Shown here piece after piece: positions 541-24,042 of a DNA stretch of 64,000 nt. Every line of letters begins with the position of its first letter. Within the stretch, counting starts at the first letter, position 1. The translations under genes were made by a program, and so were the position numbers. The stretch is from NCBI RefSeq assembly GCF_003019035.1, contig NZ_CP027447.1. The stretch is one strand, 5' to 3'. The notes below the pieces were generated by a model. It saw nothing but the letters and a program-made list of their open reading frames with translations, made no database searches and was not told the DNA's origin. The DNA is from Escherichia coli. GTDB lineage: Bacteria; Pseudomonadota; Gammaproteobacteria; Enterobacterales; Enterobacteriaceae.

Positions 541-1326
541 ATGAATTCAAAAAAGCTTTGTTGCATATGTGTGTTATTCTCGCTGCTTGCAGGATGTGCC
601 TCTGAATCTTCTATTGATGAAAAGAAGAAAAAAGCTCAAGTCACACAAAGTAATATTAATAAAAACACTCCCCAGCAACTGACAGACAAAGATTTATTCG
701 GTAATGAAACCACTCTGGCCGTATCCGAGGAGGATATTCAAGCTGCGCTTGATGGAAATGAGTTCCGCGTTCCCCTTAATTCTCCTGTAATACTTGTTCA
801 ATCCGGCAACCGCGCACCGGAAACCATTATGCAGGAGGAGATGCGAAAATATTATACTGTTTCCACATTCTCTGGTATCCCGGACAGGCAAAAGCCTCTG
901 ACTTGTAACAAAAACAAAGATAAAAATGAGAACGAGGATGTTGCCAGTGCTGAAAATATGAACTGGATGCAGGCATTGCGTTTTGTGGCTGCGAAAGGGC
1001 ATCAGAAAGCGATTATTGTTTACCATGATACGTTGCAGACAGGAAAATATGACACTGCACTGAAATCAACAGTATGGTCCGACTATAAAAATGACAAACT
1101 CACTGACGCTATCTCCCTGCGCTACCTGGTACGTTTCACGCTGGTGGATGTGGCAACAGGTGAGTGGGCTACCTGGTCGCCGGTGAATTATGAATATAAA
1201 GTGCTTCCACCATTGCCCGACAAGAATGAAGCCAGTACGACTGATATGACAGAGCAGCAAATCATGCAACTTAAGCAAAAGACCTATAAAGCGATGGTAA
1301 AAGATTTGGTTAACCGCTATCAATAA
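541..1326 (+). CDS. yafT: Lipoprotein YafT
   Basis: 261-aa ORF; N-terminal lipoprotein signal (LLAGCASE lipobox); RBS gaggga upstream of ATG; position right after aspV as in E. coli K-12. Confidence 0.8.
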
Positions 1327-3415: not shown

Positions 3416-4768
3416 TTATTTTTCGGCCGTGGTACCGGTTGCCGCCTCTGGCATGACGTTATTCTTCAGCAGCAGCCAGCGGCTTAACACGCCTTCGAGT
3501 CGCTCATTAATTTGTTTTTCCAGCGCATCTGTATTCTGCTTCTGCGCACGGGCATCCTGGTACTGCGTCAACAGAGACTCAACGGGTGTTTCCTGCCCCA
3601 GTCCCCGCTCCGCCTGCCAGATGACATTTTTGATATAGGAAAGGGTTAGTCCCTCTTTCTCGCGCTGCATCACTAGATCTGCAAAAGCATGTAAGTCCTG
3701 GCGGGTCTGCAACCAGCCACGCAACTGCGGGCTACTCTGTGCGCGGGTTTTGAGTGCCTCATTCCATTGTGTCGAGGCCTGTTGCTGTTGCAGGCTTTCC
3801 GGCCAGCGACTGTCGGCAACACGCATCATCTGCATCCCGGTTTCCAGCGGCTGTACCGGGGAGGTATCAAGAAGTTGTTGCAGCCTGCGCTCATAGTTTT
3901 CGAGTTCAGGTGAGGCCATCCACACCGTTGCTGCGCCCTGAGCGGTGTCGTTAACCTGTAACAGTTGCTGCTGCACCGGATAGACCTGCCACCACCACAA
4001 TGCTGAGGCGACAGCCACTGAACAGGCGATCCCTGCGATAAACCCTCTTACCATACTGCCTTGCTTTATCACACTGGCCTGTGGGGGATTCTCTGTCAGA
4101 CTGCGCACTTCCACTTTCATCTCAGGCAGGCCAGGCAGGGGAGGCACTACCGCTTCTGGTGTGGAAGATGCCTGTGTTTCCGGGGCATAAATCAGCGTTC
4201 TGACCGTGGTCTGTGCGGCGTTCTCAGTGTTACTCTTCAGCTGGGGTTCAAGCCGTTTACGCGTGTTCTGCATAAAATAGAGCAGATTCTCCACGCGCGG
4301 AACGCGCTTCAGTTCCACCTGCTGGAGCTTATCGCAGATAAGCTGCAATGCCCGCTCTGTGCGGTAGATCAGTGGTAGGTCGGATTCCGCAAAGGAGATT
4401 TGCTGACGCAGAATATTGCCGGTTCGGGAGTTAAACCAGTCCAGCATTTCAGTACGCGCCGGGCCGCCCTGCGGCCAGAACTTATCCCAGTCGTGGCTTA
4501 CCATTGCCGCCAGCAGTTCCGCACCTTCGCAGAATCCCGCCAGTCCCTGTGTCCGTGTCCGGGCAAGCGTATAGTAGGTGGCGGTGTGTAAATCCACACC
4601 GTTGGCTTTAAAAATCGCCAGCGCCAGCGACTCCACCAGTTTCCAGTTCAGCTCAGGCTGTGACGGGTGGCTGGCTTTGTTTATTTCCTCGCGGATGGCG
4701 CTGAATTCCGGCAGCCCGCGCGGGTCACTGCCGGTAACGATAGTTTGTGTCAGTACGTTACTATTCAT
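3416..4768 (-). CDS. tagA: TssA-like ImpA_N-domain protein with transmembrane segment (TagA/VasL-like)
   Basis: Start set at MNSNVLTQ with strong RBS (gaggagg); N-terminal DPRGLPEFSAIREEINKA resembles the ImpA_N motif; mid-protein TM helix (GFIAGIACSVAVASALWWW). The ORF-track N-terminal extension overlaps the tssM stop and is rejected. Confidence 0.55.
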   Translation of the reverse strand: MNSNVLTQTIVTGSDPRGLPEFSAIREEINKASHPSQPELNWKLVESLALAIFKANGVDLHTATYYTLARTRTQGLAGFCEGAELLAAMVSHDWDKFWPQGGPARTEMLDWFNSRTGNILRQQISFAESDLPLIYRTERALQLICDKLQQVELKRVPRVENLLYFMQNTRKRLEPQLKSNTENAAQTTVRTLIYAPETQASSTPEAVVPPLPGLPEMKVEVRSLTENPPQASVIKQGSMVRGFIAGIACSVAVASALWWWQVYPVQQQLLQVNDTAQGAATVWMASPELENYERRLQQLLDTSPVQPLETGMQMMRVADSRWPESLQQQQASTQWNEALKTRAQSSPQLRGWLQTRQDLHAFADLVMQREKEGLTLSYIKNVIWQAERGLGQETPVESLLTQYQDARAQKQNTDALEKQINERLEGVLSRWLLLKNNVMPEAATGTTAEK

Positions 4769-4778
4769 CCCTGCCTCC

Positions 4779-7700
4779 TCAGTACAGTGTGTCTGACAGA
4801 CCAAACTGGCTGAACAACCCACCGCTGAACGGGTTATCTTCCGTGTCGGTATGCACACGGTAGGTCATCGCGCCACCGTCCACGCTAAAGCGCACGGTAA
4901 AGTTGCCATCCTGTACTCCGGTCAGTTGTCCGGCCCCGAACAGGCGGAACTGCGCCCACGGCCCGCTGAAGCTGATACTGCGCGGCGCGTTGCCGCTGGT
5001 GCCGATGAGCGTCAGCTTACTTTCGTTGCCTTCGCGCATGTTGTTAGGCCAGACCAGATGGGCGGTATAGTTACGGCCCTGGCTGTAATCGACTAACTGA
5101 CCGTCAAGGTTCAGTACACTGCGGCGTTTATTGCCTGAAAGCGATACCGTTTCCACGGCAAAGGATGTTCCCAGACCGTTCTGTTTGCTGAAGAAGATGT
5201 CACGGATTTTCTGCGCAGTTTCCAGTTGCGCAATAATATCTTCGCGAATAATGACGTTGTTATCGCCGTCTTCCAGGCTCAGATCATTGTCGATAAACAG
5301 TTTCAGGTTCTGCTGGTAGAAGGTATCCAGTATGCCATCCGGTTTAAAGAATCGTTCGAAGGCATCCAGTGAGGCATCCTGTGCAGAACGTGGATTAAAC
5401 GGATAGTTATTTGCCAGTTGCTCGTTAAACGGTTTCACCACGCTGTCGCGCCAGTCCACTTCCATATAGTGAACGGCTTCCACCATCACCACATGCCAGG
5501 CCTGGTCAGCCAGCCTGCCTACCCAGCGGTTGAGCGGAGCAGGCAGTGTTTTTGCCATCTGGCGGGTGGCGAATATTGGATCGCTGCTGTTCTGATCAAG
5601 CCTTAACTGCACGGCTTTCAGCGCCGATTTCCCTGGTACAGGCGCGTTCTGGATTGCCAGCAGGTAGCGGTGTAACTCGGTGAGCTGCTGGTATACGGCC
5701 TGCATCGTGCTTTCTTTGTCTTTCTGTACTGTCAGGGTACTGTTTTCCGGGGCGAATTCATGCCCGAGGCGGGTAAGTAACTGGTAATCCGGCTCTGCCA
5801 GGGCCTCATCCCGCTCTTTGGCAGAGAGTTTTTCAGAAAAGACTCCTGGCTGTGTGTTGTCACGCAGCACGGTCAGCGCCCGCTGCAAAGGCTGGTCGCC
5901 GCTGATAACCTGCTCCAGAGTGCCAGTCAGTTGTCCAATGGACTCAAAATTGCGGATATTGAGATTGTCCATCCCGGCCCGCCAGGTGGCGGTGTAGTCG
6001 CTGATATACTGCTCGGTCAACTGGCGCTGAATTTCCGCGCGGTCGGCGTCACTGTATTTCACGCTGCGGGTGAGGTTGAGTACCCAGGAATCCATCGCCG
6101 TCAGTTCAACCAGTTCATCGCGCTGTTTTACAAAATAGCTTTGCAGGCCGTAACGGGTAAGAAACTGTGGAACAACCAGTTTGTTATCATCGGCAGATGT
6201 AAACACCTGGTCAAAGGTTGGCCCTACCTGGTCACGCAGATTGAGGTCAGCAGGAAGAACGCCCAGCGCCCGCGTTTTCAGGCTCTGATAAACCCGCTGG
6301 TAGACAGGCAGTTTGCTCAGTTCTTTCTGTGCTGATACCACGGGCTTGTCATATGGCGTCCAGCGGCTGATGGCATCACCGTCGCCCGCCTGACGCTCTG
6401 CATGCCAGTCAGTATGAGCCAGCGCGTAGTCAAGATGGGACATCAGTTGTGTCTGGATATCGCGCTGTCCGTGGAACTTTTCGCTCCAGCGTTTTGCCAT
6501 ATACTGCTTCACCACCTCATTGTTACGTCCGCTTTTGTCCTCCAGCATTCGCATCACGCGCAGCACCGCGAGTTTTTCTTCACTCTCCGGCGGCGCGGCA
6601 TTCATCGCTTTGACCAGCCCGTTAAACAGCGAGGGCAGGTAACGCTGCTCCAGAAGTTGCAGATAGGTCTGTTCCACATATGGCCCGATACGTCTCCCCT
6701 GGTACAGGCCCATATCGGCCAGACGGCTGCGCTCGCCCCAGTCGCCATAGGCCAGTGTTGCATCGCGTACCGGGTTCAGCAGTGGCAGTTGCAGGTTGCC
6801 AAAGTCATCTTCCCCCTGCGGAGGCGGCACGTCCATAAAGGCTTTGGCCTGCTTAAGCACGGTGATGCCGGACTGATAGTTACCGTTGTAATAGTGATGC
6901 CAGCCGGTGATGAGCAGCAGTGCCGCCACGCCGCCTGTGGCAGAGAAAACCGTCAGGCGGCGACGGGAACGCATCAGCCAGGCGCTGCTCTCTGTTGCCA
7001 GATTAGGCTCTGCGAGTAATGCCTGCGGGAACAGGCTGCGGGTGAAATAAGGCGCGGTGTCCACCAGAGGCCAGGACGCCAGTGGGTTATTGCCCAGTCG
7101 GTACTGGCGGGCAGCAGACTGGGTGAATATATCATCCATCTGTCCACGCTGAAGCGAAGAGGTGAGATAGACACCACGCAGCATCACGTTCATATTTTCG
7201 CCGTCAAGCAGACCCTCAAGCAGTGACACCAGCGGCTCACGGCTTCCCTGCATCTGGCGGGAAAAACTGAATAAAGACGCGCGGGTGTGAGTCTGGGTGA
7301 CCATCAGATCCGGCAACGCCAGATTCATTCGATCCACCCATGTCTGCCAGAAAGCATTCAACTCTGTTCGCCAGTCATCATTTTCATGAGCACGGCGGGT
7401 GAACGTAACACCCAGAATCGCATCGCGATCCTGTCTGTTCAGTGACTGAAACAGGGCGGCAAAACCCTGCAATAAATCAAGCCGGGTCAGTACCACGTAA
7501 ACCGGTAACTGGCAATGAAGATGCTGGCGTATATCCTGTAAGCGGCTGCGCAGCGTCTGTAACAGATGCTCGCGGCGGCGTTTGTCTGCGGTCAGCAGAT
7601 CGGGTAAATCGAGTGTCAGAATAATCCCGTTCAGCGGCTGGCGCGCGCGCTTTTCCTTCAGCCAGCCGAGGGCATGTTCCCACAGACGGCGATGCAGGAT

Positions 7701-8303
7701 ATCCGCATCAGCGGGAGCGCAGAGTGTGCCGTCGATATCAAAGATCACCGCCTGTTTACCGACATGGGGCGTGAGGTACAGGCGTTGTTCTGCGCCGCGC
7801 GCGCCCTCCGGGGCATAAATAATGTCTGACGGAAACCCCTCGCGCAGCAGTGTCGTTTTGCCACTGCCCACAGGACCGATGACCATATACCACGGCAACT
7901 GCCACAGGAAACGGCGGTTGTCGAGATGGCGTTGCAGGCGCAGCAGCCAGCGGTCGAGGTAACGCTGCTGGGCGTTCAGTTCCACACTGAGCGCATCAAC
8001 GGCTTCCTCGCGCTGTTGCTTTTGCATTTTTTCAAGCTGTTGCAGGCGCTTCATTACCCGGACGGTAAGCCACACCAGGGCAATAATCCCCCACGCCGCC
8101 GTTGCCAGCCAGCGGTTCGCCAGTGGTTTGAGCCACTGCTCTTCATACAGCGTCCATGTCGGGCCTTTCCACCAGATCCATACCAGCAGGAAAATCCACG
8201 CCAGTATCAGCAGCCAGAATGCAGAAACTTTAAACCGGGGCATCGCCGGGCGCAGGGCTGATTTGAGTTCGCTGAATAGTCGGGGTGTTGGTAATCTGAA
8301 CAC
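4779..8303 (-). CDS. tssM: T6SS membrane complex protein TssM (IcmF)
   Basis: 1174-aa ORF; N-terminal TM helices, Walker A GPVGSGKTT, large periplasmic C-terminal domain. Confidence 0.9.
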   Translation of the reverse strand: MFRLPTPRLFSELKSALRPAMPRFKVSAFWLLILAWIFLLVWIWWKGPTWTLYEEQWLKPLANRWLATAAWGIIALVWLTVRVMKRLQQLEKMQKQQREEAVDALSVELNAQQRYLDRWLLRLQRHLDNRRFLWQLPWYMVIGPVGSGKTTLLREGFPSDIIYAPEGARGAEQRLYLTPHVGKQAVIFDIDGTLCAPADADILHRRLWEHALGWLKEKRARQPLNGIILTLDLPDLLTADKRRREHLLQTLRSRLQDIRQHLHCQLPVYVVLTRLDLLQGFAALFQSLNRQDRDAILGVTFTRRAHENDDWRTELNAFWQTWVDRMNLALPDLMVTQTHTRASLFSFSRQMQGSREPLVSLLEGLLDGENMNVMLRGVYLTSSLQRGQMDDIFTQSAARQYRLGNNPLASWPLVDTAPYFTRSLFPQALLAEPNLATESSAWLMRSRRRLTVFSATGGVAALLLITGWHHYYNGNYQSGITVLKQAKAFMDVPPPQGEDDFGNLQLPLLNPVRDATLAYGDWGERSRLADMGLYQGRRIGPYVEQTYLQLLEQRYLPSLFNGLVKAMNAAPPESEEKLAVLRVMRMLEDKSGRNNEVVKQYMAKRWSEKFHGQRDIQTQLMSHLDYALAHTDWHAERQAGDGDAISRWTPYDKPVVSAQKELSKLPVYQRVYQSLKTRALGVLPADLNLRDQVGPTFDQVFTSADDNKLVVPQFLTRYGLQSYFVKQRDELVELTAMDSWVLNLTRSVKYSDADRAEIQRQLTEQYISDYTATWRAGMDNLNIRNFESIGQLTGTLEQVISGDQPLQRALTVLRDNTQPGVFSEKLSAKERDEALAEPDYQLLTRLGHEFAPENSTLTVQKDKESTMQAVYQQLTELHRYLLAIQNAPVPGKSALKAVQLRLDQNSSDPIFATRQMAKTLPAPLNRWVGRLADQAWHVVMVEAVHYMEVDWRDSVVKPFNEQLANNYPFNPRSAQDASLDAFERFFKPDGILDTFYQQNLKLFIDNDLSLEDGDNNVIIREDIIAQLETAQKIRDIFFSKQNGLGTSFAVETVSLSGNKRRSVLNLDGQLVDYSQGRNYTAHLVWPNNMREGNESKLTLIGTSGNAPRSISFSGPWAQFRLFGAGQLTGVQDGNFTVRFSVDGGAMTYRVHTDTEDNPFSGGLFSQFGLSDTLY

Positions 8304-8321
8304 AAAAACTCCTGTTCTCTT

Positions 8322-9737
8322 TTATTGTTCTGCCGTGAATTTTTGTTCTAGCTGCTCAAGCAGGGACGGCTCCCAGTCTGCCACCATCATCTGCAATCCC
8401 ATCCTGAACAACATCCGGTACTGTTGCTGCGCAAGCTGTATCAGCCCCGCCTCCTCCGTCAACTGTGCGGCAAGGTACTGGCGGTGAAACTGATCGCGGG
8501 GTTCACCGGCGGGCAACGTATCCAGATACCGTAAGGCGGCTTCCAGCCCCTGTTCATCAAAACACAACCGCGCAGCCTGAATATCTTCATTACTCACCTG
8601 TATGACTGGCGCGGCCTGGTTACCTGGCTGAGTTGCAAGCCATTGCTTCGTTTTTTCAGAAACAAACGGTGTGTGGTCGTTAAACAGAAGATCGGCAAGA
8701 GCGGGCAGACGGCCAAGGAAGGAAACGACTTCATCGCGGATGGCATCGGCCACGGCGGTATAGCCAAGACGGTGCGCCGTCTGTGCAGAAATGCAGTGAC
8801 CGTCCAGCCAGTAGGGTGCCAGCAATACGCTTTTTTCCACCTGCTGCCACAGCGCCATATCGGCACTACCGAGCTGAGCATGGTAATCCGCCACCATATC
8901 GGCAGAGACCGCAGCCAGTGGGGTACGTCCATCGCTTTCCGCCTGGGGCGTACTGGTGATGGATTGCCACAGGGCATGGCGGCGGAGGCGATAGCCCAGC
9001 GGCGAGTCCGGCTGGCGTTCACATAAAATAGCCGCCACTTTTAACAGCGTGTCGCGCCAGGCTTTGTCGTCGTGACTGTCGATGGCGATCTGTAGAGCCG
9101 GAGCACTGGTTTGCGTCATGCTGCTTTCAGACGTGACGGTGGTTTGTGGTGAACTACCGGAGGCCGCCGGAGTGGGGACCGGAGCAGGAGCCGCACGATT
9201 AAACGTACGCTGGTACAGGGCAAAAAGATCATCGGTAGCCTGTGCCAGTTCCGGGACGTTATGTGACTGCCAGCACTGTGCCAGTTTCGCCAGTTCACCT
9301 AATAGCGCATCGCGCTGCGCTGTGGCGGCGTTCTGTGAAAAGCCTTCAATACCTGTTTCAAAGCGTTTAATGACCTGGCTGGCGAAGCGTTTTTTATGTG
9401 CCATATTCTGCGGCGCGGCCACCGCCCAGTAATGTTCCACATACAGTGCCAGCAGGCGCAAGGCCAGAAGCGGATCACCGGCATGTTGCAGGGTTCTCAG
9501 CAGATGCGCCAGCAGACGAAAATCCTTACTCTCCGAAGCCAGAATGACCAGCCCCCGGCGCTGGAGTTCCGGGATATCCAGTTGGCTGTGGGCCAGTGAA
9601 CCCAGTTTGACGATTTCGCCGTCGATATACTCCCAGTCCGGGTTGTCATCTTTTAGCGCCGATGCCTGTTTTTCTTCAGGCAGGTTTTCCAGCAGGTGCG
9701 ATATCCAGACATTCGGATCGCGTAAGTCCATTGCCAT
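8322..9737 (-). CDS. tssA: T6SS protein TssA (probable)
   Basis: About 470 aa from MAMDLRDP with RBS gggagaa; position between tssM and clpV in a T6SS operon; assigned by context and size, not a strong motif. Confidence 0.5.
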   Translation of the reverse strand: MAMDLRDPNVWISHLLENLPEEKQASALKDDNPDWEYIDGEIVKLGSLAHSQLDIPELQRRGLVILASESKDFRLLAHLLRTLQHAGDPLLALRLLALYVEHYWAVAAPQNMAHKKRFASQVIKRFETGIEGFSQNAATAQRDALLGELAKLAQCWQSHNVPELAQATDDLFALYQRTFNRAAPAPVPTPAASGSSPQTTVTSESSMTQTSAPALQIAIDSHDDKAWRDTLLKVAAILCERQPDSPLGYRLRRHALWQSITSTPQAESDGRTPLAAVSADMVADYHAQLGSADMALWQQVEKSVLLAPYWLDGHCISAQTAHRLGYTAVADAIRDEVVSFLGRLPALADLLFNDHTPFVSEKTKQWLATQPGNQAAPVIQVSNEDIQAARLCFDEQGLEAALRYLDTLPAGEPRDQFHRQYLAAQLTEEAGLIQLAQQQYRMLFRMGLQMMVADWEPSLLEQLEQKFTAEQ

Positions 9738-9741
9738 ATTT

Positions 9742-10485
9742 TTATTCTCCCGCCCAGTGGCAGGCGTCGCGTAGCGGCGCAATAACCCGTGCCAGCCCGT
9801 CAATGTTAAAGGTCAGCTTTCCGGCTGCGTTGTCTGCGCCGGTATCCACCGTCAGCGTTGTTGCGCCGAACAGTTGCTTAATTTCATCAATCCCGGACAG
9901 CCCCCGGCTGGACTCCAGCAGGGTGCCGTTCTCGCGCACAAACCAGTGGCTGCGCAATACCCGGCTGTCGGCATTCAGGGTGACGGCGATATCATGGACA
10001 TCCAGAGGGTGCACCAGCGCCACCTGCATCCGGGTGATATTGTCCACACAGCTGAACATCAGCACCGGGCGAGGCGGAACATGGCCGATAGCCGGGGTGG
10101 TTACCACCACCGTCGGGCGTTCCCCCGGCACCTGCGTCACCAGCAGCTCTGTGGTGTTGCCCTGGCGACGTTTTTCCTGCTCTATGGCACGGGTCCAGGC
10201 TTCGCCCACAAAACTGGCTTTGACCAGCGCCCCGTCAAACCCTGACGGGGACAGCGGTTCCAGCAGGCGGTCATAGCAGTCAAGCCGCTCCAGCGCCGCG
10301 AACTCCCGCCGACAGGACTGCATGGCCTGTAATGTGGCTGTCGCATCCGGCGGGGTCGCTGTGGCGACGGCTACCGCCACACCGGCCATTGACGATGTTT
10401 CTGCGGGCGCGGCACTGGCGGGTAAGCCCGCCATCAGGCCCGCAATAAACCATCCTGTCTGCCGGAAAACGCGCAACCTGCTCAT
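9742..10485 (-). CDS. Secreted T6SS-associated protein (VasI-like)
   Basis: 247-aa ORF with N-terminal signal peptide (FIAGLMAGLPASAAPA); embedded between clpV and tssA. Confidence 0.4.
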   Translation of the reverse strand: MSRLRVFRQTGWFIAGLMAGLPASAAPAETSSMAGVAVAVATATPPDATATLQAMQSCRREFAALERLDCYDRLLEPLSPSGFDGALVKASFVGEAWTRAIEQEKRRQGNTTELLVTQVPGERPTVVVTTPAIGHVPPRPVLMFSCVDNITRMQVALVHPLDVHDIAVTLNADSRVLRSHWFVRENGTLLESSRGLSGIDEIKQLFGATTLTVDTGADNAAGKLTFNIDGLARVIAPLRDACHWAGE

Positions 10486-13241
10486 AAAACCGTTTCATCT
10501 TCTGTGACGGACTCGTCGTCCAGAGCATCTTCCACATCTGCTGTGAACGTGCCGTCTGCCGCCGACAGCCGAATCCGGGCAATCGCCGTGTTGGCTGCCA
10601 TCTTCTGCAACAGCAGCAGGGAGAGCGGCGGCAGCATGTCGCCGTCAATGACCGATTCGAGCATCCTCGCGCCGTTTTCCGCTCGGGTGACGCGGCTCAT
10701 GATTTCGTCCGTCACTTCCGGCTCAATAATCACTTCCGCGCCAAAGCGACTGCGCAGCACGTTATCCAGACGGGTGAGTTTCCCGGCAATAATGGTGGCG
10801 AGCGTCTCTTTCGACAACGGCAGGTACGGCACCACTTCCATACGCGCCAGCAGGGCAGGTTTAAAGAAGTCCGCCAGCACCGGATAGAGGGCTTCCTGCA
10901 TGGTCTCCGGGTCATCGGCGTGTTCGACAATCACCTGGTAGCCAAGGTTGGAGGTGAGGAAGAAGACGATGTTTTTACAGTCAATCAGGCGACCTTCGCC
11001 GTCTGCCATCTCGCCCTTGTCAAACGCCTGGTAGAACAGGTTGAGGACATCCGGGTGCGCTTTTTCCACTTCATCGAGTAGCACCACCGAGTACGGTTTC
11101 TGGCGAATCGCTTCGGTCAGCACGCCGCCTTCGCCATAGCCAACGTAGCCCGGAGGCGAACCAATCAGGCGTGAAACGGTGTGTTTCTCCTGGAACTCGG
11201 ACATATTAATGGTGGTCAGGTACTGGCGACCGCCGTAGAGCAGTTCTGCCAGTTGCAGAACGGTTTCGGTTTTACCCACGCCGCTGGGGCCAGCCAGCAG
11301 GAACGCGCCGAGCGGGCGTCCCGGGCGGCGCAGGTCGGCGCGTGCAGTCAGCAGATGCTTATGCAGGCTGGCAATCGCCAGATCCTGGCCTTTGATGGTG
11401 TCGCCCAGCCATTTCGGCAGGTCGGTGATGACCGACATTTCATTCTGCGACAGGCGGTTAAGCGGAACGCCAGTCCATTCGGCAATCACCGCCGCAATCT
11501 GTTTTTTATCGACGTGCGGGGAGACCTGCAACCGGTCGTTATGCAGGGCGTCCAGTTCGGCAGTAAGCTGTGCCAGCCGTTGTACCGGGGAAACTGTTTC
11601 AGCGGTCTCTTCCGGCTGTTCGCTGCCAGCTTCATCAGCCGGTTCGGCATCGGTATTATCCTGTTCTGCCTCAGACGGCGTATCCTCCGCGGCATCTGCG
11701 TCCGGCAACGACGCCGCATCGTCTTCTGCCATACCCAGTAACTGCTGGCGCAGCGCGATAATTTCCTGTACCAGCGTCTGTTGCTGATGCCAGGCGGCTT
11801 CCAGTTCGTCCAGCGCCGTCAGCGTTTCATCATACTGCACCAGCACCTCCGTCATCCGTGAGGTGTCGGTACGCAGCCCGATGCGAAGCTCGCGCTCAAG
11901 CTGGCGAATTTCCGCCTCCTGCTGGTGGCTCAGGGTGGTCAGCGCCGAGATTTGCTTCGGTGGCGATGAAAGGTTAATGGCCACGCGGGCGCAGGCCGTA
12001 TCCAGCACATCAATGGCTTTGTCCGGCAACTGACGTCCGGAGAGATAACGCTCGCTTAATGTCGCAGCGGCCTGCAAGGCATCATCGTCAATCAGGACGC
12101 CGTGAGACTGTTCATAGACCGCCGACAGACCACGCAGAATAATGGTGGCTTCGGCGGCACTGGGTTCGCTGACCTTCACCAACTGGAAGCGGCGCGACAG
12201 GGCGGCATCTTTCTCGAAGTATTTTTTGTACTCGCTCCAGGTGGTGGCGGCGATGGTTTTCAGCTCGCCGCGCGCCAGTGCCGGTTTGAGCAGGTTGGAG
12301 ATATCCAGCCCGCCCTGCTGGTTGCCCGCCCCAATCAGGGTATGCGCTTCGTCGATAAACAGAATGACCGGCACCGGGGAGGATATGACCTCCGCCATCA
12401 GCCCCTTGAAGCGTTTTTCAAACTCACCTTTCACCGATGCCCCGGCCTGCAATGCACCCAGGTCAAGGGTCATAATGTCGGTGTTTTTCAGTTTGTCCGG
12501 CACCTGGCCTGCCACGATGCGCAGCGCCAGCCCTTCAATCAGCGCGCTTTTACCCACACCCGCTTCACCCACCACCACCGGATTGTTTTTACGACGGCGG
12601 CAGAGAATGTCGATCATCAGGTCGATTTCGTGGTCGCGGCACAGTACCGGATCAAGCCTGCCGTTACGGGCATCTTCGGTCATGTTTTTGGCGTAGCGGG
12701 CAAGCAGGGTGTCAGCAGCGTCCGTCAGTGTGCCTGCGCCTTTACCGTCTGCATCCGGCACGACTGATTCCGCCGACTCCTGTGTCCACTGCACAAAGTC
12801 CTGCTGCAGACGGTCACGGTTAATGCCGGTCAACAGCCGGGCGGCAGCAGGCGGTATATAACGCAGCGGCGAATGCAGCAGGGCCAGCAGCAACACGCCG
12901 CCGCGCAGTTCGCTGTGCTGCATCTCAGCCGACGCCAGCAGCCAGCCCTCTTTCAGCCACTCAACCAGCATCGGGGAAAACGCCGGGTAGCTGTCCGCAG
13001 AACGGGCGGTTGTGTAGTTCTCCACCGTCAGTGCCAGGCGCAACTCTTCCATGCCAATATCGCCCTGGCGGGTAATAACCCGCAGGTCACTGCGTGGCAT
13101 GGCGAGCATCTGAATAAGCACATGGCTGACGGTAATTTCCGCTGCCTGCTGGCTCATACATTCAGAGGCGGCCATCTCCAGCGCCTGGCGGGAGAACAGG
13201 TTAAGCCGTTTTACCAGCGTGGGAAGATCAATCTGGATCAT
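10482..13241 (-). CDS. clpV: T6SS AAA+ ATPase ClpV (TssH)
   Basis: Two AAA+ modules (Walker A GEAGVGKS and GPSGVGKT), ClpB-like middle region; start set at MIQIDLPTLVKRLN to avoid overlap with tssL. Confidence 0.9.
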   Translation of the reverse strand: MIQIDLPTLVKRLNLFSRQALEMAASECMSQQAAEITVSHVLIQMLAMPRSDLRVITRQGDIGMEELRLALTVENYTTARSADSYPAFSPMLVEWLKEGWLLASAEMQHSELRGGVLLLALLHSPLRYIPPAAARLLTGINRDRLQQDFVQWTQESAESVVPDADGKGAGTLTDAADTLLARYAKNMTEDARNGRLDPVLCRDHEIDLMIDILCRRRKNNPVVVGEAGVGKSALIEGLALRIVAGQVPDKLKNTDIMTLDLGALQAGASVKGEFEKRFKGLMAEVISSPVPVILFIDEAHTLIGAGNQQGGLDISNLLKPALARGELKTIAATTWSEYKKYFEKDAALSRRFQLVKVSEPSAAEATIILRGLSAVYEQSHGVLIDDDALQAAATLSERYLSGRQLPDKAIDVLDTACARVAINLSSPPKQISALTTLSHQQEAEIRQLERELRIGLRTDTSRMTEVLVQYDETLTALDELEAAWHQQQTLVQEIIALRQQLLGMAEDDAASLPDADAAEDTPSEAEQDNTDAEPADEAGSEQPEETAETVSPVQRLAQLTAELDALHNDRLQVSPHVDKKQIAAVIAEWTGVPLNRLSQNEMSVITDLPKWLGDTIKGQDLAIASLHKHLLTARADLRRPGRPLGAFLLAGPSGVGKTETVLQLAELLYGGRQYLTTINMSEFQEKHTVSRLIGSPPGYVGYGEGGVLTEAIRQKPYSVVLLDEVEKAHPDVLNLFYQAFDKGEMADGEGRLIDCKNIVFFLTSNLGYQVIVEHADDPETMQEALYPVLADFFKPALLARMEVVPYLPLSKETLATIIAGKLTRLDNVLRSRFGAEVIIEPEVTDEIMSRVTRAENGARMLESVIDGDMLPPLSLLLLQKMAANTAIARIRLSAADGTFTADVEDALDDESVTEDETVL

Positions 13242-13249
13242 AAACGTCC

Positions 13250-14011
13250 TTATCGAAGTAATTTGTTTAGCTGGTGCAGGATGTCCTGCGTCTGGCTGTC
13301 CAGCCGCAACAGATAGAACAGGTAAAACAACGCCAGCACGACAACGCCACCACAAAAAATATGTTTAATGGTCAGGTGACTGATGAGCTGATAACGCCCG
13401 CCCTGGTTTTTTTTGTCCTGGTGTAACAGCGGGAAAGGGGCATCGCCGCGTAGTTTATGCAGGACGTGGTACAGGCGGCGGTAGATCTGCTCAAATTCTC
13501 CCTGATCCTGTGCTGCCACTTTGTAGCGCCCGCGAAATCCCAGAGAAAAACAGAGCCAGAGAAATTCCAGCAGATCCTGGTAACGTTTGGGTTCACGGAT
13601 CAGGCGCTCCAGCAGGATGAAAACTTTCTCGCCACCCCAGGCTTCGTTGTGGAAATGGACCAGCAATGACTGCTTGATCCACTCGTTCTTGTTCGACCAG
13701 CCGTTACCGAGCGCCGCTTCATCAATAAACGTGCAGAGGATGTAGCGAAACGAGATAATCACGCCCGGTTCGTAGCCCTGCTCCTGAAGCAGTTGCTCCA
13801 CGGCCTGAACATCCGTCACCACCTGAGCAAAAAGATGCTCCGGCATCGTCTGGCTGTTCATGGTTGAAAGGCGCATCACCATACCGAGGAGCGGCGTGGC
13901 TGCGTCGATCATCGGATTCAGGCTGTTGCCACGAAGCGCGAGATGGTAGTCGCGCTGGCCTTTTTCGTCGTGTCCGATAAATGGTGGCAGAGACAGTGAC
14001 TCCTCATCCAT
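13250..14011 (-). CDS. tssL: T6SS membrane protein TssL (DotU-like), no periplasmic peptidoglycan-binding extension
   Basis: 253-aa ORF, cytoplasmic DotU-like domain and a single C-terminal TM helix (VVVLALFYLFYLL) ending shortly after. Confidence 0.8.
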   Translation of the reverse strand: MDEESLSLPPFIGHDEKGQRDYHLALRGNSLNPMIDAATPLLGMVMRLSTMNSQTMPEHLFAQVVTDVQAVEQLLQEQGYEPGVIISFRYILCTFIDEAALGNGWSNKNEWIKQSLLVHFHNEAWGGEKVFILLERLIREPKRYQDLLEFLWLCFSLGFRGRYKVAAQDQGEFEQIYRRLYHVLHKLRGDAPFPLLHQDKKNQGGRYQLISHLTIKHIFCGGVVVLALFYLFYLLRLDSQTQDILHQLNKLLR

Positions 14012-14015: not shown

Positions 14016-15347
14016 TTACCCTCTTATAGCCCACAGTTGCATATTCAGGTCCGGAAAACTGCCGGAGACATGCAGTGCAACGGCCCCGGCGGCAGCTATT
14101 TCAGCCCAGGCCTGGCCGCTTTTGTCGAGTTCGAAATAGCTGAACCCGGAATGGTAGGGAAGCTGGCGGGGAGCCACCATCAGTGCACGCAGAGGAATAC
14201 CGGGGATCTGCACACTGACCATATTGCGGATTTTTTCCGGCGAGGAAATTTTCGACTGCTGGATAAACTGGCGCTGGATCTGATCGACCGGCATGTTTGC
14301 CGCCACGGCCAGCACAAAGGTGGCAGATTGCAGCAGTTCTGTGTCATGGATATCGGCCTGCCAGATACCGTCACGCAGATGCAGCGGCAGATTGACGGCT
14401 CTTGGCGACAGTACGGTATGCAGCGCCCGTTTGACTTCCGGTAACAGCGTTTTAAATGTTTTGGTCAGGTCATGATGATCATACACATCAAGCGGGCAGG
14501 GCAGGCGCGACGGCTCGGTAAAGGTCATCAGTTCACCCAGCAACCCCGCAAGATCAAGGTAGAAATCTTCCGGGTGGAGCTGGGATCGACGAGCGCGATG
14601 GGTAAACCGGGTCTGGTTACGGTTAAGTAACTGCAACATCATAAATTCCGCCACATCCGCGATGCCGCTCTGCGCCGGAGAGCCAATGCGGTTTGCCAGA
14701 TCGCTTGCCCGTCCGCCAATGGCCCCCTGTACCTCTTTGAGATAAACACGCAGTTTCTTACTGACCTGAATATTCTGGCAGGAGGGGATAAAATCGTCAT
14801 CCAGCGTCAGGGAGCCGTCGGCATGGCGATCGCTGATACGGCAAAGCGGGAGCGTAATATAGGCGCTCATATCTTCTGCACCGCTCATAATGCGCGGCGT
14901 AAGTTGACCCAGCGTCAGTGTTCGCGCGTCACCTTCTTCTGAATGCAAATCCCGGACATCGGCATAATTCAGCCGGTAACGCCCGATTCGCCGCCCGTCG
15001 CTGATTTCATTTCTCACATCACTGGCGACCGGCAGAGCGAGGTAAATATTGCGGCTTCTTTCGTCCGGAAAATTTTGCGGGTGCAGCGGATCGGGCAGTG
15101 CGTCCTGGTCGGGGATAGAAAAGACGGTGCCGTCGGGCAGTGTGCCTGACGCGCTGTCAATCATGATCTTACCCTGCGCCAGCAGTTCATTGTTGAGGGT
15201 GAGTTCGGTAAATCCCCAGGATAAATCATTCATGGCCCGGAAACGCTGGTTATCCAGGTAGTCGTTGTAACGCTGCTGTTGCTGGAAATGGTGTGGGCGC
15301 ATCAGCATCCCTTCCTGCCACATCACCTTGTTGCGGGTGGTTGCCAT
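14016..15347 (-). CDS. tssK: T6SS baseplate protein TssK
   Basis: 443-aa ORF starting MATTRNKVMWQEGMLMRPHHFQQ, characteristic TssK N-terminus; operon position. Confidence 0.8.
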   Translation of the reverse strand: MATTRNKVMWQEGMLMRPHHFQQQQRYNDYLDNQRFRAMNDLSWGFTELTLNNELLAQGKIMIDSASGTLPDGTVFSIPDQDALPDPLHPQNFPDERSRNIYLALPVASDVRNEISDGRRIGRYRLNYADVRDLHSEEGDARTLTLGQLTPRIMSGAEDMSAYITLPLCRISDRHADGSLTLDDDFIPSCQNIQVSKKLRVYLKEVQGAIGGRASDLANRIGSPAQSGIADVAEFMMLQLLNRNQTRFTHRARRSQLHPEDFYLDLAGLLGELMTFTEPSRLPCPLDVYDHHDLTKTFKTLLPEVKRALHTVLSPRAVNLPLHLRDGIWQADIHDTELLQSATFVLAVAANMPVDQIQRQFIQQSKISSPEKIRNMVSVQIPGIPLRALMVAPRQLPYHSGFSYFELDKSGQAWAEIAAAGAVALHVSGSFPDLNMQLWAIRG

Positions 15348-15349
15348 AA

Positions 15350-15874
15350 TTATTCATCCTCTTTTTTCATTTCGATGCTGCTTTGACGTACATGCACCAG
15401 CAGGCGGTAATGGTGGCCGGTTCCTTCCACCGTCTCGATTTGTTTCCATTCAGTGGCCTGGTCATCGGAGAAATAGGCCACGACACCAATAAACTGCGTT
15501 TTCTCATCCAGCTTTACCGGCGGCAGGGTTTTGATGGTGTCCGGCAACAGGTTGAAATCCTGGTGGTCGATATAGTTTTTACCCAGCACATCCGGTAGCG
15601 GCGTACTGGCTATCTGGTCATAGTCGGCTGCCAGCAATTTTGAGTCGTCAGTCAGGTACACCAGTTGCACATCCACGGCGGCTGATTCACCCTCCGCATT
15701 GGTATTGGTGTCCGGTTCGGTCAGCAGGGTGACGGTTATTTCCGAAGGTTGCTCCTTCAGGCTCCCGACCTGGATATCCGGGTTTTTGATCACCTCACTG
15801 ATTTTTTTCGCCGTTTCGCAGCCGGTTAATATGACGCACATCAGCACGCAGGCCAGAAACGCCTTCCTGTTCAT
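15350..15874 (-). CDS. tssJ: T6SS outer-membrane lipoprotein TssJ
   Basis: 174-aa ORF with lipoprotein signal (CVILTGCETA). Confidence 0.8.
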   Translation of the reverse strand: MNRKAFLACVLMCVILTGCETAKKISEVIKNPDIQVGSLKEQPSEITVTLLTEPDTNTNAEGESAAVDVQLVYLTDDSKLLAADYDQIASTPLPDVLGKNYIDHQDFNLLPDTIKTLPPVKLDEKTQFIGVVAYFSDDQATEWKQIETVEGTGHHYRLLVHVRQSSIEMKKEDE

Positions 15875-17172
15875 GCTTCCGGCTCCCGCTGTTTTTCACG
15901 AAGCACCCGGTCATAGACCTGGGCGTAGACCTCGTTAAACAGCATCTCAAACCCCTGCTGGCGATCGGAGGCCAGCTCTTCGTAATAATGGCTGTACATT
16001 TGCCATGCTCCGGCATCATCCAGCGGCTGGCGCAGTTCATGGCTGCGGCGGTACTGCACAAAGCGGCGCAGCAGATTTTGTGGTGAGAAGGCGTCCAGCA
16101 GGACACGAAGCGACTCCACAATCGCCGCCCGGTTAGCTTCTTCGTGGTGGCGGACATTGCGCAGGCTTTCACTGACAGCGGCGGGAGCCGCCAGATGTAC
16201 CGGACTTTTACCTTCGGCAAACATCACGTCGAGCGCGGTGGCGTAATCCATGTTCAGGCGCAGCGGGTTATCTTCCAGCGGGCGCAAATGTTTGTCTGAG
16301 AGGCTGTTACGCTGCTGCTGCAAATCAAGCAGACCTTTTATTGCGGCCTGTAACGTGCGTCCGGCCTCCTCCAGAAAATCATCCGCATCGTCGGAATTGC
16401 TCACGGTAAGCGAGCCGCCAAGACCGCGCAGTAAGGGGGTGACCGCAAGGTGGCGTTGCGCCATTTCTGCCACAGAGACGTCATCATTACGCTCGCCGGG
16501 GCTGGCATAAATGGGCGGCAGATCCATAAACGGCGTATTGATCCCCCCATTACTTGCCGGATCGGACAGCGGTGCCGATGGCCGGACAGCCGCAATGCCT
16601 GAAAGCGGATCGCCCGCGGTAATCAGGCTTTCGGACTGAAGTGCCTGGAGTGGATCGGCAGAAAAACCGTTTACCACGGTGTCTGCAAGCTGATGCCGGT
16701 GAGTCATTCCCGGATAGTGTGGCGCACCCTCCGTTGACAGCAGGGTATCCGTGAGCATATCGCGATTGGTGACGATGGTTTCGGGAGTGGCCATTTCCTC
16801 ATCGTAATGGGGGATATCTCCCCGGTTCAGATGAACCCTCACCATCAGACGCCCTATCTGGATCTCATCGCCCTGGCGCAGCTGTATCAGGTCTGATGTT
16901 GCTGTGACTTTTGCCTGGTTCAGCCACAGTTGTGCCGTCTGCGGGCGCAGACAAAATGTGCCATCGTGCAGGATAACGGTAAAGGCCTGAGCCGGAATGC
17001 TCTGCTGACGATCCTGTACCGACCAGTGGCATTCGGGGCCATGGCCGACATTTCCCTGCTGCGTGAACAGACAGCGCGCCGCCCGCCCGCTTTCCAGCTC
17101 ACTGCCGTTAATGACCTGCAATGAAAGCGTCTGTAGTTTCTCTTCCGGCATATTCTGCTCCGTGATTATCAT
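15871..17172 (-). CDS. tagH: FHA-domain T6SS accessory protein (TagH/Fha-like)
   Basis: 433-aa ORF; N-terminal region with FHA-like pattern (GR...G...DG.F.L...LWLNQ...L.QGDEIQIGR); operon position between tssG and tssJ. Confidence 0.5.
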   Translation of the reverse strand: MIITEQNMPEEKLQTLSLQVINGSELESGRAARCLFTQQGNVGHGPECHWSVQDRQQSIPAQAFTVILHDGTFCLRPQTAQLWLNQAKVTATSDLIQLRQGDEIQIGRLMVRVHLNRGDIPHYDEEMATPETIVTNRDMLTDTLLSTEGAPHYPGMTHRHQLADTVVNGFSADPLQALQSESLITAGDPLSGIAAVRPSAPLSDPASNGGINTPFMDLPPIYASPGERNDDVSVAEMAQRHLAVTPLLRGLGGSLTVSNSDDADDFLEEAGRTLQAAIKGLLDLQQQRNSLSDKHLRPLEDNPLRLNMDYATALDVMFAEGKSPVHLAAPAAVSESLRNVRHHEEANRAAIVESLRVLLDAFSPQNLLRRFVQYRRSHELRQPLDDAGAWQMYSHYYEELASDRQQGFEMLFNEVYAQVYDRVLREKQREPEA

Positions 17173-17175
17173 AAT

Positions 17176-18264
17176 TTACGACCGTACCCTGATGGTGACT
17201 GAGGGTCGTTCTTCCGGTGTGCCGAGGAAGCTGGTCCAGCCCAGCAGCGCACTTTTGTTATCGCCCAGGCGCATTGCGCCCACCTGCTCCGGTGCCAGCC
17301 CCAGATGTAAGTCCCAGGCAAGCTGATCGCGCAGGATGAAGGACACAAACATCGTCAGTGGCAGGAAGTTTTCGCCGGACGGCAGAAAAGAGAGGAGCTG
17401 TTTTCGGGTCAGGCTGGTAATACTGAGCTGGAATTTTCCGCTGAGATCGGGCACCCGTGTACCCAGAACAAAGTTGCCCAGTACCGATCTTCCGGCCAGT
17501 TTTTCGCCATTTTTAAGGGAATAGCTCCCCAGGCTGTTTTGCTGATCCGGTTCAATATCCACCTTGCGACGTTGCCAGTTTTGCAGCGTCACGTCTGACA
17601 AGTCAAAACAGTGTGACACCAGGCCGCAGATGATTTCCGGGGATCGTCCCGGATTTGCCAGGATCCCGGAATACGCCAGCATTTTGCTGTGATTAATCGC
17701 CAGCTTATCGCGAAGCTGGCGGTGGCCCAGCCCGACAAGGGAGTACATGCGCTGCGAGAACGCATCCACACCGCCGTTACGAAAACTGATGTGATAGCGG
17801 TACTTACGCCAGATATGCCAGACAAACTGGGTCAGGCGGTGGCTGAACATATCCAGAAAATCGCCTACCGGACTTTGTTCATGTACCGCTTTCCAGGCCA
17901 GGTGATCCAGGTAATAACCGGGGAGAGGCGACTGGCTCCCCTGTAACCCCATAAAGGTGGTGGTCATCCTGAATGCCCCTGACGTATCCCGTTTCAGCCC
18001 ACTGATATCACTGCACGGGAAGGCAAGGCTGGCATCGGCGCTGAAACGCAGGGTTTCCTGTGCCGGATCATCGCGCAGGGATAATTCCGGTGTCCCCTTT
18101 TCACCCTGTGCCAGGCGGTGCAACAGCTCCGCCATCGCAAAAAAATTGTAAGAGCAGGCGTTATGGAAAACCTGTGCCAGCGGATCATTCTGCTCTTTAT
18201 CTGCCGGGGGATGTCCCGGACTCAGATAAGAGGATGCTGCCCGGTTCTTTCCGTCCATTTCCAT
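17176..18264 (-). CDS. tssG: T6SS baseplate protein TssG
   Basis: 362-aa ORF directly downstream of tssF with short overlap, typical tssF-tssG coupling. Confidence 0.75.
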   Translation of the reverse strand: MEMDGKNRAASSYLSPGHPPADKEQNDPLAQVFHNACSYNFFAMAELLHRLAQGEKGTPELSLRDDPAQETLRFSADASLAFPCSDISGLKRDTSGAFRMTTTFMGLQGSQSPLPGYYLDHLAWKAVHEQSPVGDFLDMFSHRLTQFVWHIWRKYRYHISFRNGGVDAFSQRMYSLVGLGHRQLRDKLAINHSKMLAYSGILANPGRSPEIICGLVSHCFDLSDVTLQNWQRRKVDIEPDQQNSLGSYSLKNGEKLAGRSVLGNFVLGTRVPDLSGKFQLSITSLTRKQLLSFLPSGENFLPLTMFVSFILRDQLAWDLHLGLAPEQVGAMRLGDNKSALLGWTSFLGTPEERPSVTIRVRS

Positions 18265-20072
18265 GTCTCCTGGCTTTCTGTGTTCACAACGGTCAGCATG
18301 TGGAATGAGTTAACGCTGGCGTACAGCGACAGAAAATGCGAAAGCACCGTACCGAGCAGATACATTTCCCCTTCACAGACAAACGGCTCCGGGTGCAGAT
18401 ACAGCGTGGAGGCCAGCCCCCGGACGGGAATGCCCGTAAACAGGCGATCGACAGGGCGGGTCTCCAGACGCTCAATGGCATCCAGCTTTTGTTGTGACAG
18501 CCGCGCCGTCTGCGGATGATGGATTGCGTGGCGATCAAAGTTGGCGATGACCTGCTTCAGCGCGTCCGTATCTAGTAATGACAGATAATTCAGGTTCATG
18601 GCGGAGAGCAGGGACCAGTGCAGGCTGCCATCAATGACCGGCCAGAGCGGTTGCGTCGGGCGGGTAATGTTGCGAAATGAAGCAACAGCCGCATTTTTAC
18701 CGGTTGTGCCGGTGATATCGCCGGAACGAATTTGTGACGGAAGCTCACGGTTGGTACAGGTCAGCGATACCGAAACCACTTCATTACTGAGCAGCGATTC
18801 GTCTGACGGATAACTGCCATCAGCATGTATAAAAGCAAGGGTATGATCAAAGCCGCGATGGAACAGGGATGTTTTGGTCCGGTGATGCCAGTACACCACT
18901 TCCCGCTTCCGGCTGTATTCCATCTGATGGCTGAAACTTTCAAAGGCAGGCCACTGGCGCGCGGCCTGCGTCGAAACAGGACGCCCCAGATCTTTTTTCC
19001 TGAACATATCCTGCACCTGGCTCACCACGCCGTTAACGGAAAAGACATCGTAATGTTCCGGATAGTGGCGGCTGGGAACCAGCGGATAGTCTGCCCGCCG
19101 GTTGTCCAGCGTGATGGCTTCTGCATGGTGGATAAATAAATTAATGGCAGGTGCGCAATACAGGCGCAGAGAATCGCGGCGCAGCCGGATGTCCACGGGC
19201 AATGGGCGCGAAAAACGCAGTTGCAGGGTAAAGGATTCAGCCTGCAATCCGTCAGGCAACGCCGGGCAACCACAAAGATCAAAAAAGAGAAACGCATCCG
19301 GGTAACAGAAATACTCCTGAAGGATCCGGTAGCCGCTGTGGACGTTTTTCGGCCAGGGCAGCATGGCATCCTGCGGCTCAAAACCGACAGCTTTCAGCAT
19401 AAACTCAGGCAGGCGAATATGCTGTTCACCCACAGTCAGGTCGGCACCCTGCAAGTATTCACAGAACCATAAATAAAGCTGGTCACGGGTATAGTTGTCG
19501 TCATTGCCGAGCCAGAAGCGAAGTTTGTTCAGATCCAGCGTGCGGAAGTCCGTTCCCGGTGCGACCGAAAAGGTGATGTTGATAACACCATTACGGGTCG
19601 TACTGCGGTTTTCAATCTGCTCCAGGCGAACGGGCAGCAGCCAGATATCCCGGCAGAGGGTGAAGGTACAGGGAGGCGGCTCCTCCTTTTTAGCATCGGA
19701 GGGCAGCACTTCATCGACTCTAATTTCCCCGGCGTTGGTTGTAAACTGCTCATTACGGGGGATTAACACCGGCACAGAAGACTTATCCATATCCGGCGTA
19801 TATTCAATAAGGGTCATTGCCGGAACCGGACGCAGGTAATTAGGCCACAGCATCTTAATAAGCCCGTGCGTCAGTTCTGGGAATTCATCCTCAATTTTCT
19901 GGCGGAGATTGCCGGTAAGAAAAGCCACGCCTTCCAGCAGGCGTTCAATATCCGGATCCGCATCTTTTTCGGCCAGGAAGCGGGCCAGATGGGGTTTTTC
20001 CGTTGCCAGCAGCTTGCTGAGCTGGCGCAGGTAATCGAGTTCTTCCCGGAAATAGCGTTCTTCAAATTCCAT
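18222..20072 (-). CDS. tssF: T6SS baseplate protein TssF
   Basis: 616-aa ORF starting MEFEERYFREELDYLRQL, typical TssF N-terminus. Confidence 0.8.
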   Translation of the reverse strand: MEFEERYFREELDYLRQLSKLLATEKPHLARFLAEKDADPDIERLLEGVAFLTGNLRQKIEDEFPELTHGLIKMLWPNYLRPVPAMTLIEYTPDMDKSSVPVLIPRNEQFTTNAGEIRVDEVLPSDAKKEEPPPCTFTLCRDIWLLPVRLEQIENRSTTRNGVINITFSVAPGTDFRTLDLNKLRFWLGNDDNYTRDQLYLWFCEYLQGADLTVGEQHIRLPEFMLKAVGFEPQDAMLPWPKNVHSGYRILQEYFCYPDAFLFFDLCGCPALPDGLQAESFTLQLRFSRPLPVDIRLRRDSLRLYCAPAINLFIHHAEAITLDNRRADYPLVPSRHYPEHYDVFSVNGVVSQVQDMFRKKDLGRPVSTQAARQWPAFESFSHQMEYSRKREVVYWHHRTKTSLFHRGFDHTLAFIHADGSYPSDESLLSNEVVSVSLTCTNRELPSQIRSGDITGTTGKNAAVASFRNITRPTQPLWPVIDGSLHWSLLSAMNLNYLSLLDTDALKQVIANFDRHAIHHPQTARLSQQKLDAIERLETRPVDRLFTGIPVRGLASTLYLHPEPFVCEGEMYLLGTVLSHFLSLYASVNSFHMLTVVNTESQETWKWTERTGQHPLI

Positions 20073-20075
20073 CTG

Positions 20076-20489
20076 TCAGTCCACCCGGTAATGCTGGCTG
20101 CCATTCGGTGCCATATCAAATTCAAGCACTTCATGCGTTTCGTTAAATGTCACCCAGGCTGTAATATGAAACGTCATATCCAGCGGGCTGGCGGCGGATG
20201 AAACCACAGCCTGCACTTCAGCGTGTGAGATCCGGGGTTCATAGCGTTCTATACATTGCGCGATGGCCCGACTCATTGATTGGCGGAAGTTTTCAGCCCC
20301 TTCCGGTTCATCAATGCCCAGTTCAGGCGCACCCCGGCAACTACCGGACCGGGTATTAAGAATGTTTCGCAGGTTCTGGCGAATGGACTGCCTGAGCGCA
20401 TGAATACTGCTTCCCTGCCGGTTTCTGGCCGGTGAGGCTTCCATACGCTCAAAAAGAGAACCTGTGGTTCTTTCCCGATCCGGTATCAT
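20076..20489 (-). CDS. tssE: T6SS baseplate protein TssE (gp25-like)
   Basis: 137-aa ORF between tssC and tssF; size and position typical of TssE. Confidence 0.8.
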   Translation of the reverse strand: MIPDRERTTGSLFERMEASPARNRQGSSIHALRQSIRQNLRNILNTRSGSCRGAPELGIDEPEGAENFRQSMSRAIAQCIERYEPRISHAEVQAVVSSAASPLDMTFHITAWVTFNETHEVLEFDMAPNGSQHYRVD

Positions 20490-20495
20490 GGCGTG

Positions 20496-21971: not shown

Positions 21972-22280
21972 ACTGAAAATCCTTCTGTTTTAGCTGTGTT
22001 TCTGAAACCGGCTTTTCGCCATCAGTGAAGTACGCGCTGCCAGTGCGACGCGCTCTGCTGAAACTCACAAAAATGGATAATCTCATCCAATAGATCACTG
22101 ATACGGCGATCCAGTGTTGTAATCAGCGCAGCCACACCATCCTGGTTGATTTCAACGGACGGGCTGAAACATACCTGGTAAACCACCTGCAGAATGTCTG
22201 CAACAGAGAGGTGGTATGTCCCGGAGATATTTTTGTGTGCCGTCATGCCTGGATAACCCTGTTTAATGAAATAGTGGTGG

Positions 22281-23996: not shown

Positions 23997-24007
23997 GTTA
24001 AGCCAAC

Positions 24008-24042
24008 AGCATCCGGCTATCAGGCCGGATGCTGTTTTTGTA
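24008..24042 (+). terminator. Rho-independent terminator/attenuator after hcp
   Basis: Inverted repeat aacagcatccggc ... gccggatgctgtt followed by TTTTT. Confidence 0.6.

Follow-up and report, generated by a model that had tools for sequence, protein, structure and literature searches.

TssA, TagA and a short TssL in an Escherichia coli type VI secretion cluster that encodes no dedicated peptidoglycan-binding domain

The T6SS-2 cluster and its genes

The 64-kb stretch of Escherichia coli DNA analysed here (contig NZ_CP027447.1; hereafter the window) contains a type VI secretion system (T6SS) cluster, whose minus-strand genes between positions 3416 and 14011 encode TagA, TssM, TssA, VasI, ClpV and TssL (Table 1). 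This region is almost certainly the distal half of the standard T6SS-2 cluster of E. coli, located in the aspV tRNA island. A sequence-only reading of the window had pointed to the presence of two TssA-family genes, to a TssL protein ending right after its transmembrane (TM) helix and to the lack of any OmpA-like anchoring protein, and had asked how the membrane complex is attached to the cell wall. All of these observations were confirmed. The cluster encodes no dedicated peptidoglycan-binding domain at the sequence level and, for VasI and TagA, at the fold level, and the missing domain is a trait of a whole T6SS subfamily, not a loss in this strain.

According to the Prokaryotic Genome Annotation Pipeline (PGAP), the minus-strand genes are, in this order, the gene of a VasL-domain protein, tssM, tssA, vasI, tssH, DotU/tssL, tssK, tssJ, tagH, tssG, tssF, tssE, tssC and tssB, while hcp, vgrG and an Rhs element lie divergently after tssB; Pfam scans of the open reading frames (ORFs) of the window concur with PGAP for every gene. 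Every core gene has a Pfam or NCBIfam match exceeding the curated cut-offs, and the domain matches are therefore not due to chance; none of the 13 core genes is disrupted in the window. The cluster shows a gene order like that of Vibrio cholerae, contains a forkhead-associated (FHA) gene and an Rhs effector, is chromosomal and adjoins a tRNA-Asp gene; in the closest genome, SCU-301, the T6SS island is located directly downstream of this gene. Clusters of E. coli with this organisation, including the FHA gene and the Rhs effector, are named T6SS-2 (PMC10711316, PMC12981562). The identity of the cluster proteins and their roles, taken together, can be regarded as very probable, with the evidence about the roles being carried over from orthologues. 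A megablast search found the region 3416-14011 in 3500 of 5426 complete E. coli genomes, with at least 80% of its length present in 2666.

From tssB to tagA, the gene order is the one that we take to be that of the large V. cholerae cluster, except that vasH is absent between clpV and vasI. The part of the V. cholerae order from VCA0115 to VCA0121 is confirmed by published data (PMC3166118). The cluster represents, in enterobacteria, the equivalent of the V. cholerae VCA0107-VCA0123 system (vipAB ... vasF, clpV, vasH, vasI, vasJ/tssA, vasK/tssM, vasL/tagA), with which it shares a VasF-type TssL co-linear to the last residue, a TssA composed of ImpA_N and VasJ, a TagA composed of ImpA_N, a TM segment and VasL, the presence of VasI, and the lack of a peptidoglycan-binding domain. 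Unlike the V. cholerae cluster, it has no gene for the sigma-54 activator VasH in the position mentioned above, it carries an extra hcp and variable cargo after tagA and an Rhs effector after vgrG, and its proteins have diverged (the TssL match has an E-value of 1e-55, and is far from near-identity).

Table 1. Coordinates of the genes, domains and segments discussed in the text (aa, amino acids).
Feature	Position	Strand	Basis
tssA, long class A (TsaC; ImpA_N + VasJ), 471 aa	8322..9737	-	Pfam, NCBIfam and PDB matches
tagA, VasL-type, class B / TsmA, 450 aa	3416..4768	-	Pfam, hydrophobicity, AlphaFold model
TagA ImpA_N domain, residues 12-113	4430..4735	-	PF06812, 69.7 bits
TagA sole hydrophobic/TM segment, residues 239-263	3980..4054	-	Kyte-Doolittle scan (window 239-257); modelled helix 239-274
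TagA C-terminal VasL domain, residues 292-434, all alpha-helical	3467..3895	-	PF12486, 81.8 bits (cut-off 27.3); AlphaFold model
tssL, short C-tail-anchored form, 253 aa	13250..14011	-	DotU, 195.8 bits
TssL TM helix, residues 217-235, only one	13307..13363	-	Hydrophobicity scan
TssL post-TM tail, 18 residues, amphipathic motif L-x2-Q-x3-IL-x-QL-x2-LL	13253..13306	-	Homologue alignment
vasI / tagO, 247 aa	9742..10485	-	N-terminal signal peptide inferred from sequence
yafT-like, predicted outer-membrane lipoprotein, island edge	541..1326	+	Lipobox LLAGC
tssM	4779..8213	-	PGAP start (ORF reaches GTG at 8303); Pfam IcmF-related_N, IcmF-related, IcmF_helical, IcmF_C
clpV / tssH, 919 aa, intact	10482..13241	-	Pfam AAA_2, AAA_lid_9, ClpB_D2-small; start read from translation
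tssK, tssJ, tagH (FHA), tssG, tssF, tssE, tssC, tssB (rest of structural operon)	14016..22781	-	Pfam, PGAP
hcp, vgrG, rhs core (divergent effector operon)	23478..29989	+	Pfam

TssA, TagA and the short TssL

The protein proposed as TssA contains an ImpA_N domain (PF06812, 29.8 bits, cut-off 26.9) followed by a VasJ domain (PF16989, 243.7 bits), and matches over its full length the TssA equivalog family TIGR03362 with 500 bits. No hydrophobic window was found in it by a Kyte-Doolittle scan. The nearest solved TssA structures are those from Aeromonas hydrophila (6g7b, 1.7e-84; also 6g7c) and V. cholerae (6riu, 3.5e-66). The second ImpA_N protein, TagA, whose gene starts 10 nucleotides (nt) after the tssM stop, is indeed membrane-anchored as had been proposed, and combines ImpA_N and VasL domains with a single hydrophobic segment. 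An AlphaFold model of TagA, built from 46 homologues out of related loci (mean predicted local distance difference test score, pLDDT, of 83), comprises a helical ImpA_N domain, a disordered linker (residues 178-237), a single long helix and the all-helical VasL domain.

The hypothesis that TssA and TagA derive from a recent duplication was rejected, because pairwise BLASTP gave an E-value of 0.64 and the similarity is seen at the profile level only. The TssA/TagA pair of V. cholerae is likewise distant (12.7% identity; PMC3166118). The two ImpA_N genes are not redundant copies, and in an analysis of 100 clusters the pairing of TssA with TagA was found to be normal in T6SS phylogenetic groups 1 and 2 (PMC7896307).

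In V. cholerae, TssA is a dodecamer located at the sheath's distal end, while TagA (VCA0121) localises to the membrane in roughly hexameric spots where the sheath meets the far side of the cell, and prevents sheaths from becoming over-long, bending or detaching (PMC6745524). Interactions between TssM, TssA and TagA have been described (PMC7545191, PMC6450956), and VCA0121 is dispensable for Hcp secretion and killing (PMC3166118). By analogy, TssJ, TssL and TssM would build the envelope-spanning complex, and TssA, as a long cap protein, would ride the sheath's growing distal end and act as a chaperone of sheath-tube growth. TagA, whose single helix fixes it in the inner membrane, would capture TssA by means of its ImpA_N region at the opposite membrane, stop growth and hold the extended sheath until firing. 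As a single TM helix follows the cytoplasmic ImpA_N domain, the VasL domain of TagA is predicted to be periplasmic.

As for TssL, the DotU domain spans residues 33-234, and the 18 residues after the TM helix leave no periplasmic domain. Along the 438-position NCBIfam profile NF005444, which describes DotU-family TssL proteins, the window TssL covers only the DotU part (positions 37-266). The protein is homologous to the 'evolved' TssL, which bears a C-terminal OmpA-like extension, in its N-terminal DotU domain and TM helix, but the C-terminal part of the profile, about 170 positions long, is wholly absent. The match with V. cholerae VasF (VCA0115, 4v3i; 1.1e-55) is co-linear to the C-terminal residue of both proteins.

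The tail after the TM helix is well conserved. In the alignment of 74 homologues, its mean column identity is 0.73, compared with 0.75 for the cytoplasmic domain and 0.56 for the TM helix. No variation occurs at L237, Q240 and L248, while I244, L245, Q247, L251 and L252 are kept in 89-99% of the sequences, and the pattern is also seen in V. cholerae VasF. The tail resembles an amphipathic helix that may have a partner.

Search for a peptidoglycan-binding domain

Nine cluster proteins, including TagA, VasI, TssL, TssJ and TagH, were searched against Pfam with the permissive threshold of E <= 10, and the remaining cluster proteins with E <= 0.01; NCBIfam was searched as well. This profile search, which had been set beforehand as the refuting test of the sequence-only reading, detected no OmpA, LysM, SPOR, SH3b or PG_binding family in any cluster protein, leading us to reject a hidden OmpA, LysM, SPOR or SH3b domain. 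None of the envelope proteins of the cluster carries an OmpA/Pal/MotB-like (PF00691) anchor of the kind present in evolved TssL, TagL, TagN, TagP and TagW. Nor was a lipoprotein of the Serratia TagV type, with an SH3b domain, found among them: TssJ matches T6SS-SciN only, and the YafT-like lipoprotein at the island edge belongs to no Pfam family and has no SH3 match at the sequence level (single homologues of it give weak DUF4136 and TolB_N hints).

An OmpA-like domain encoded in an unannotated frame was also considered. All the stop-to-stop segments in the six frames of the window were compared by phmmer and hmmsearch with E. coli Pal, with the C-terminal domain of OmpA, and with a hidden Markov model (HMM) of both. 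The best E-value was 1.8, while the positive controls passed (Pal against OmpA, 1.6e-12; both queries against PF00691, 5e-22 and 5e-25), and this possibility was rejected. The PGAP annotation of near-identical E. coli genomes likewise contains no OmpA-like gene in the window.

At the level of fold, the AlphaFold models of VasI and TagA show no OmpA-like or other known wall-binding fold. The VasI model, obtained from a 78-sequence alignment of diverse homologues, has a mean pLDDT of 86, exceeding 90 over most of the folded region (residues 100-240), and begins with short N-terminal helices, continuing into a beta domain of ten strands, whose closest match is IalB (3dtd_A). Such a confident IalB-like beta domain led us to discard the idea of VasI as a cryptic OmpA-like domain. 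There was no support for the VasL domain of TagA as a wall-binding module; the domain forms an all-alpha bundle, and its fold matches were generic helical ones only. No solved structure was found for VasI, YafT or the VasL domain.

The comparison was then extended to 80 loci with 10-kb flanks from species-representative genomes of other genera, found by alignment of 14 closer VasI sequences and spanning many Enterobacterales, Pasteurellaceae, Gilliamella, Halomonas and an Osedax symbiont. A TssL homologue is present in 74 of these loci, and in each of the 74 the protein extends 0-6 residues past the aligned end of the window TssL; the 67 homologues with a scored hydrophobic window end 12-22 residues after it. 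A TagA homologue could be identified in 70 of the 80 loci, and several of the loci lacking one break off at a contig end. Thus, both the short TssL and the pairing of TssA with TagA characterise the subfamily. With the two-sequence Pal/OmpA HMM, no OmpA-like domain was found within 10 kb in any of the 80 loci.

These data also bear on the hypothesis that the missing domain reflects decay, i.e. that TssL has been truncated and the cluster is degenerate. The Rhs effector is interrupted by an in-frame stop shortly ahead of its toxin tip, and degeneration of T6SS-2 has been reported in enterohaemorrhagic E. coli (PMC12981562). However, the end point of TssL is shared with V. cholerae VasF and with all the 74 homologues, which excludes truncation by mutation, the tail is well conserved and the core genes are intact, so that decay deserves hardly any credence.

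Some considerations weigh against our reading of the cluster. The roles of TssA and TagA are inferred, being borrowed from V. cholerae, which has the same architecture, and from Sci-1 of enteroaggregative E. coli (EAEC), where TagA has a different C-terminus. The topology of TagA is unsettled: the V. cholerae TagA-mNeonGreen fusion, whose name suggests a C-terminal tag, fluoresces at the membrane (PMC6745524), and the C-terminus may thus be cytoplasmic. The two-sequence HMM used on the 80 loci is less sensitive than Pfam, and its controls included no known T6SS peptidoglycan-binding domain. Finally, a peptidoglycan-binding module of an unrecognised kind could escape a homology search.

Anchoring of the membrane complex

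The question of how the membrane complex obtains its cell-wall anchorage is legitimate, yet it has been posed before: V. cholerae and Edwardsiella tarda have been named as notable T6SSs devoid of a peptidoglycan-binding domain, and it has been asked how such systems work, with the suggestion that housekeeping OmpA/Pal-like proteins encoded elsewhere may substitute (PMC8253398). It is a recognised open question, not a new anomaly, just as the TssA and TagA pair and the short TssL without a wall-binding domain are documented traits of the subfamily and already known.

A useful comparison is provided by the Sci-1 system (T6SS-1) of EAEC, which likewise has a short C-tail-anchored TssL, a long TssA and an ImpA_N partner, associated with the membrane, that arrests the sheath and keeps it in place. 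Unlike the window cluster, which has none, Sci-1 gets its peptidoglycan-binding domain in trans via TagL (PMC8253398). In addition, the TagA of Sci-1 differs at its C-terminus and shares only 19% identity with the V. cholerae type (PMC6745524, PMC7896307), the order of the genes differs, and EAEC TssA matches the window TssA weakly (6rju, 1.6e-9).

The most economical view is that a complex spanning both membranes and threaded through the wall needs no dedicated domain, or else borrows housekeeping proteins of the OmpA/Pal type. The specific proposal that the system recruits an OmpA-family protein encoded elsewhere (OmpA, Pal, YiaD, YfiB or a MotB-type protein) was made explicitly in the paper on the TagL structure, which also cites a precedent for a borrowed housekeeping wall enzyme, namely MltE in EAEC Sci-1 (PMC8253398); the lack of any OmpA-family candidate in the cluster is in line with it. 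Direct evidence for such a recruitment is, however, found neither here nor in the cited papers, and the window contains no OmpA-family gene, the motB-like gene of the Flag-2 cluster lying beyond its end. We therefore consider this recruitment possible, although on balance unlikely.

A different explanation would be that a periplasmic protein of unrecognised fold, encoded in the cluster itself, links the membrane complex with the wall or the outer membrane, the main candidate being VasI/TagO and the other the yafT-like lipoprotein. VasI, which seems to carry a signal peptide, occurs in this T6SS subfamily only, and no peptidoglycan-binding domain was detected in any of the VasI-linked clusters examined. 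In V. cholerae, Hcp secretion does not require VCA0118 (VasI), whereas full killing does (PMC3166118), a phenotype that would fit a stabiliser. Homologues of yafT adjoin tagA in 22 of the 80 clusters, from several genera, and in the Pragia (L058) and Limnobaculum (L070) loci the gene is on the same strand as tagA, about 43 nt downstream. On the other hand, neither VasI nor YafT matches a peptidoglycan-binding family, nor does VasI match such a fold, and no wall-binding activity has been established for the IalB fold. The yafT gene is absent from the remaining 58 clusters and persists in genomes that have lost the T6SS, and may therefore be an unrelated neighbour or an immunity gene, while the co-occurrence of VasI with the short TssL may reflect shared ancestry. 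In view of this, a tether encoded in the cluster appears improbable. Equally doubtful is the broader idea that the V. cholerae-like subfamily swapped an OmpA-type anchor for envelope parts of its own, i.e. one or more of VasI/TagO, a YafT-type lipoprotein and the TssL tail.

The features noticed in the sequence-only reading, taken as submitted, matter little, because they re-describe documented features of a very common E. coli cluster. The by-products of the analysis, namely the IalB-like VasI, the yafT-like lipoprotein linked to tagA and the conserved TssL tail, are testable candidates in a tractable organism.

Genes at the edges of the island and in the rest of the window

Apart from the possible tethering function discussed above, the yafT-like gene may be an undescribed accessory or immunity gene. 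At the same end of the island, a second hcp (2910-3392, minus strand) follows tagA and is in turn followed by the genes of a 304-residue protein with two C-terminal hydrophobic helices and of the multi-TM protein YkfM (the whole stretch being 1463-3392). The 304-residue protein recurs in only three of the 80 related loci, and the cargo of the second hcp looks like a variable Hcp-linked effector/immunity pair.

At the other end, the Rhs gene (26381-30598, plus strand) is interrupted by an in-frame stop at 29987-29989, which precedes the DPIGL end motif by about 30 codons; the ORF of the toxin tip (30059-30598) is thus separated from the core. The probable immunity ORF is located at 30574-31005. 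The GC content is 0.38-0.43 at 1-4000 and 30001-32000, compared with 0.54-0.62 over most of the T6SS genes; these low-GC stretches coincide with the end carrying the variable cargo and the lipoprotein, and with the Rhs tip and an ISAs1-family transposase gene (31298-32434).

The frameshift annotated in clpV of SCU-301 is absent from the window, where clpV is an intact ORF. Over 33 kb, 26 mismatches and 18 indels separate SCU-301 from the window, and the indels are probably assembly errors in that record. Between tssB and tssC, a 74-codon ORF (22022-22246, minus strand) gives a weak match to the N-terminus of TssC (positions 2-33 of the VipB profile, E 0.003; positions 43-82 of TIGR03355), and may be a duplicated TssC fragment.

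In addition to the transposase gene, the rest of the window contains yafV, ivy, fadE, lpcA, yafJ, dpaA, yafQ-dinJ, yafL and the start of the Flag-2 lateral flagellar cluster (40533-64000), which includes flhA, flhB, fliR/Q/P ... flgE/F/G homologues and is absent from E. coli K-12.

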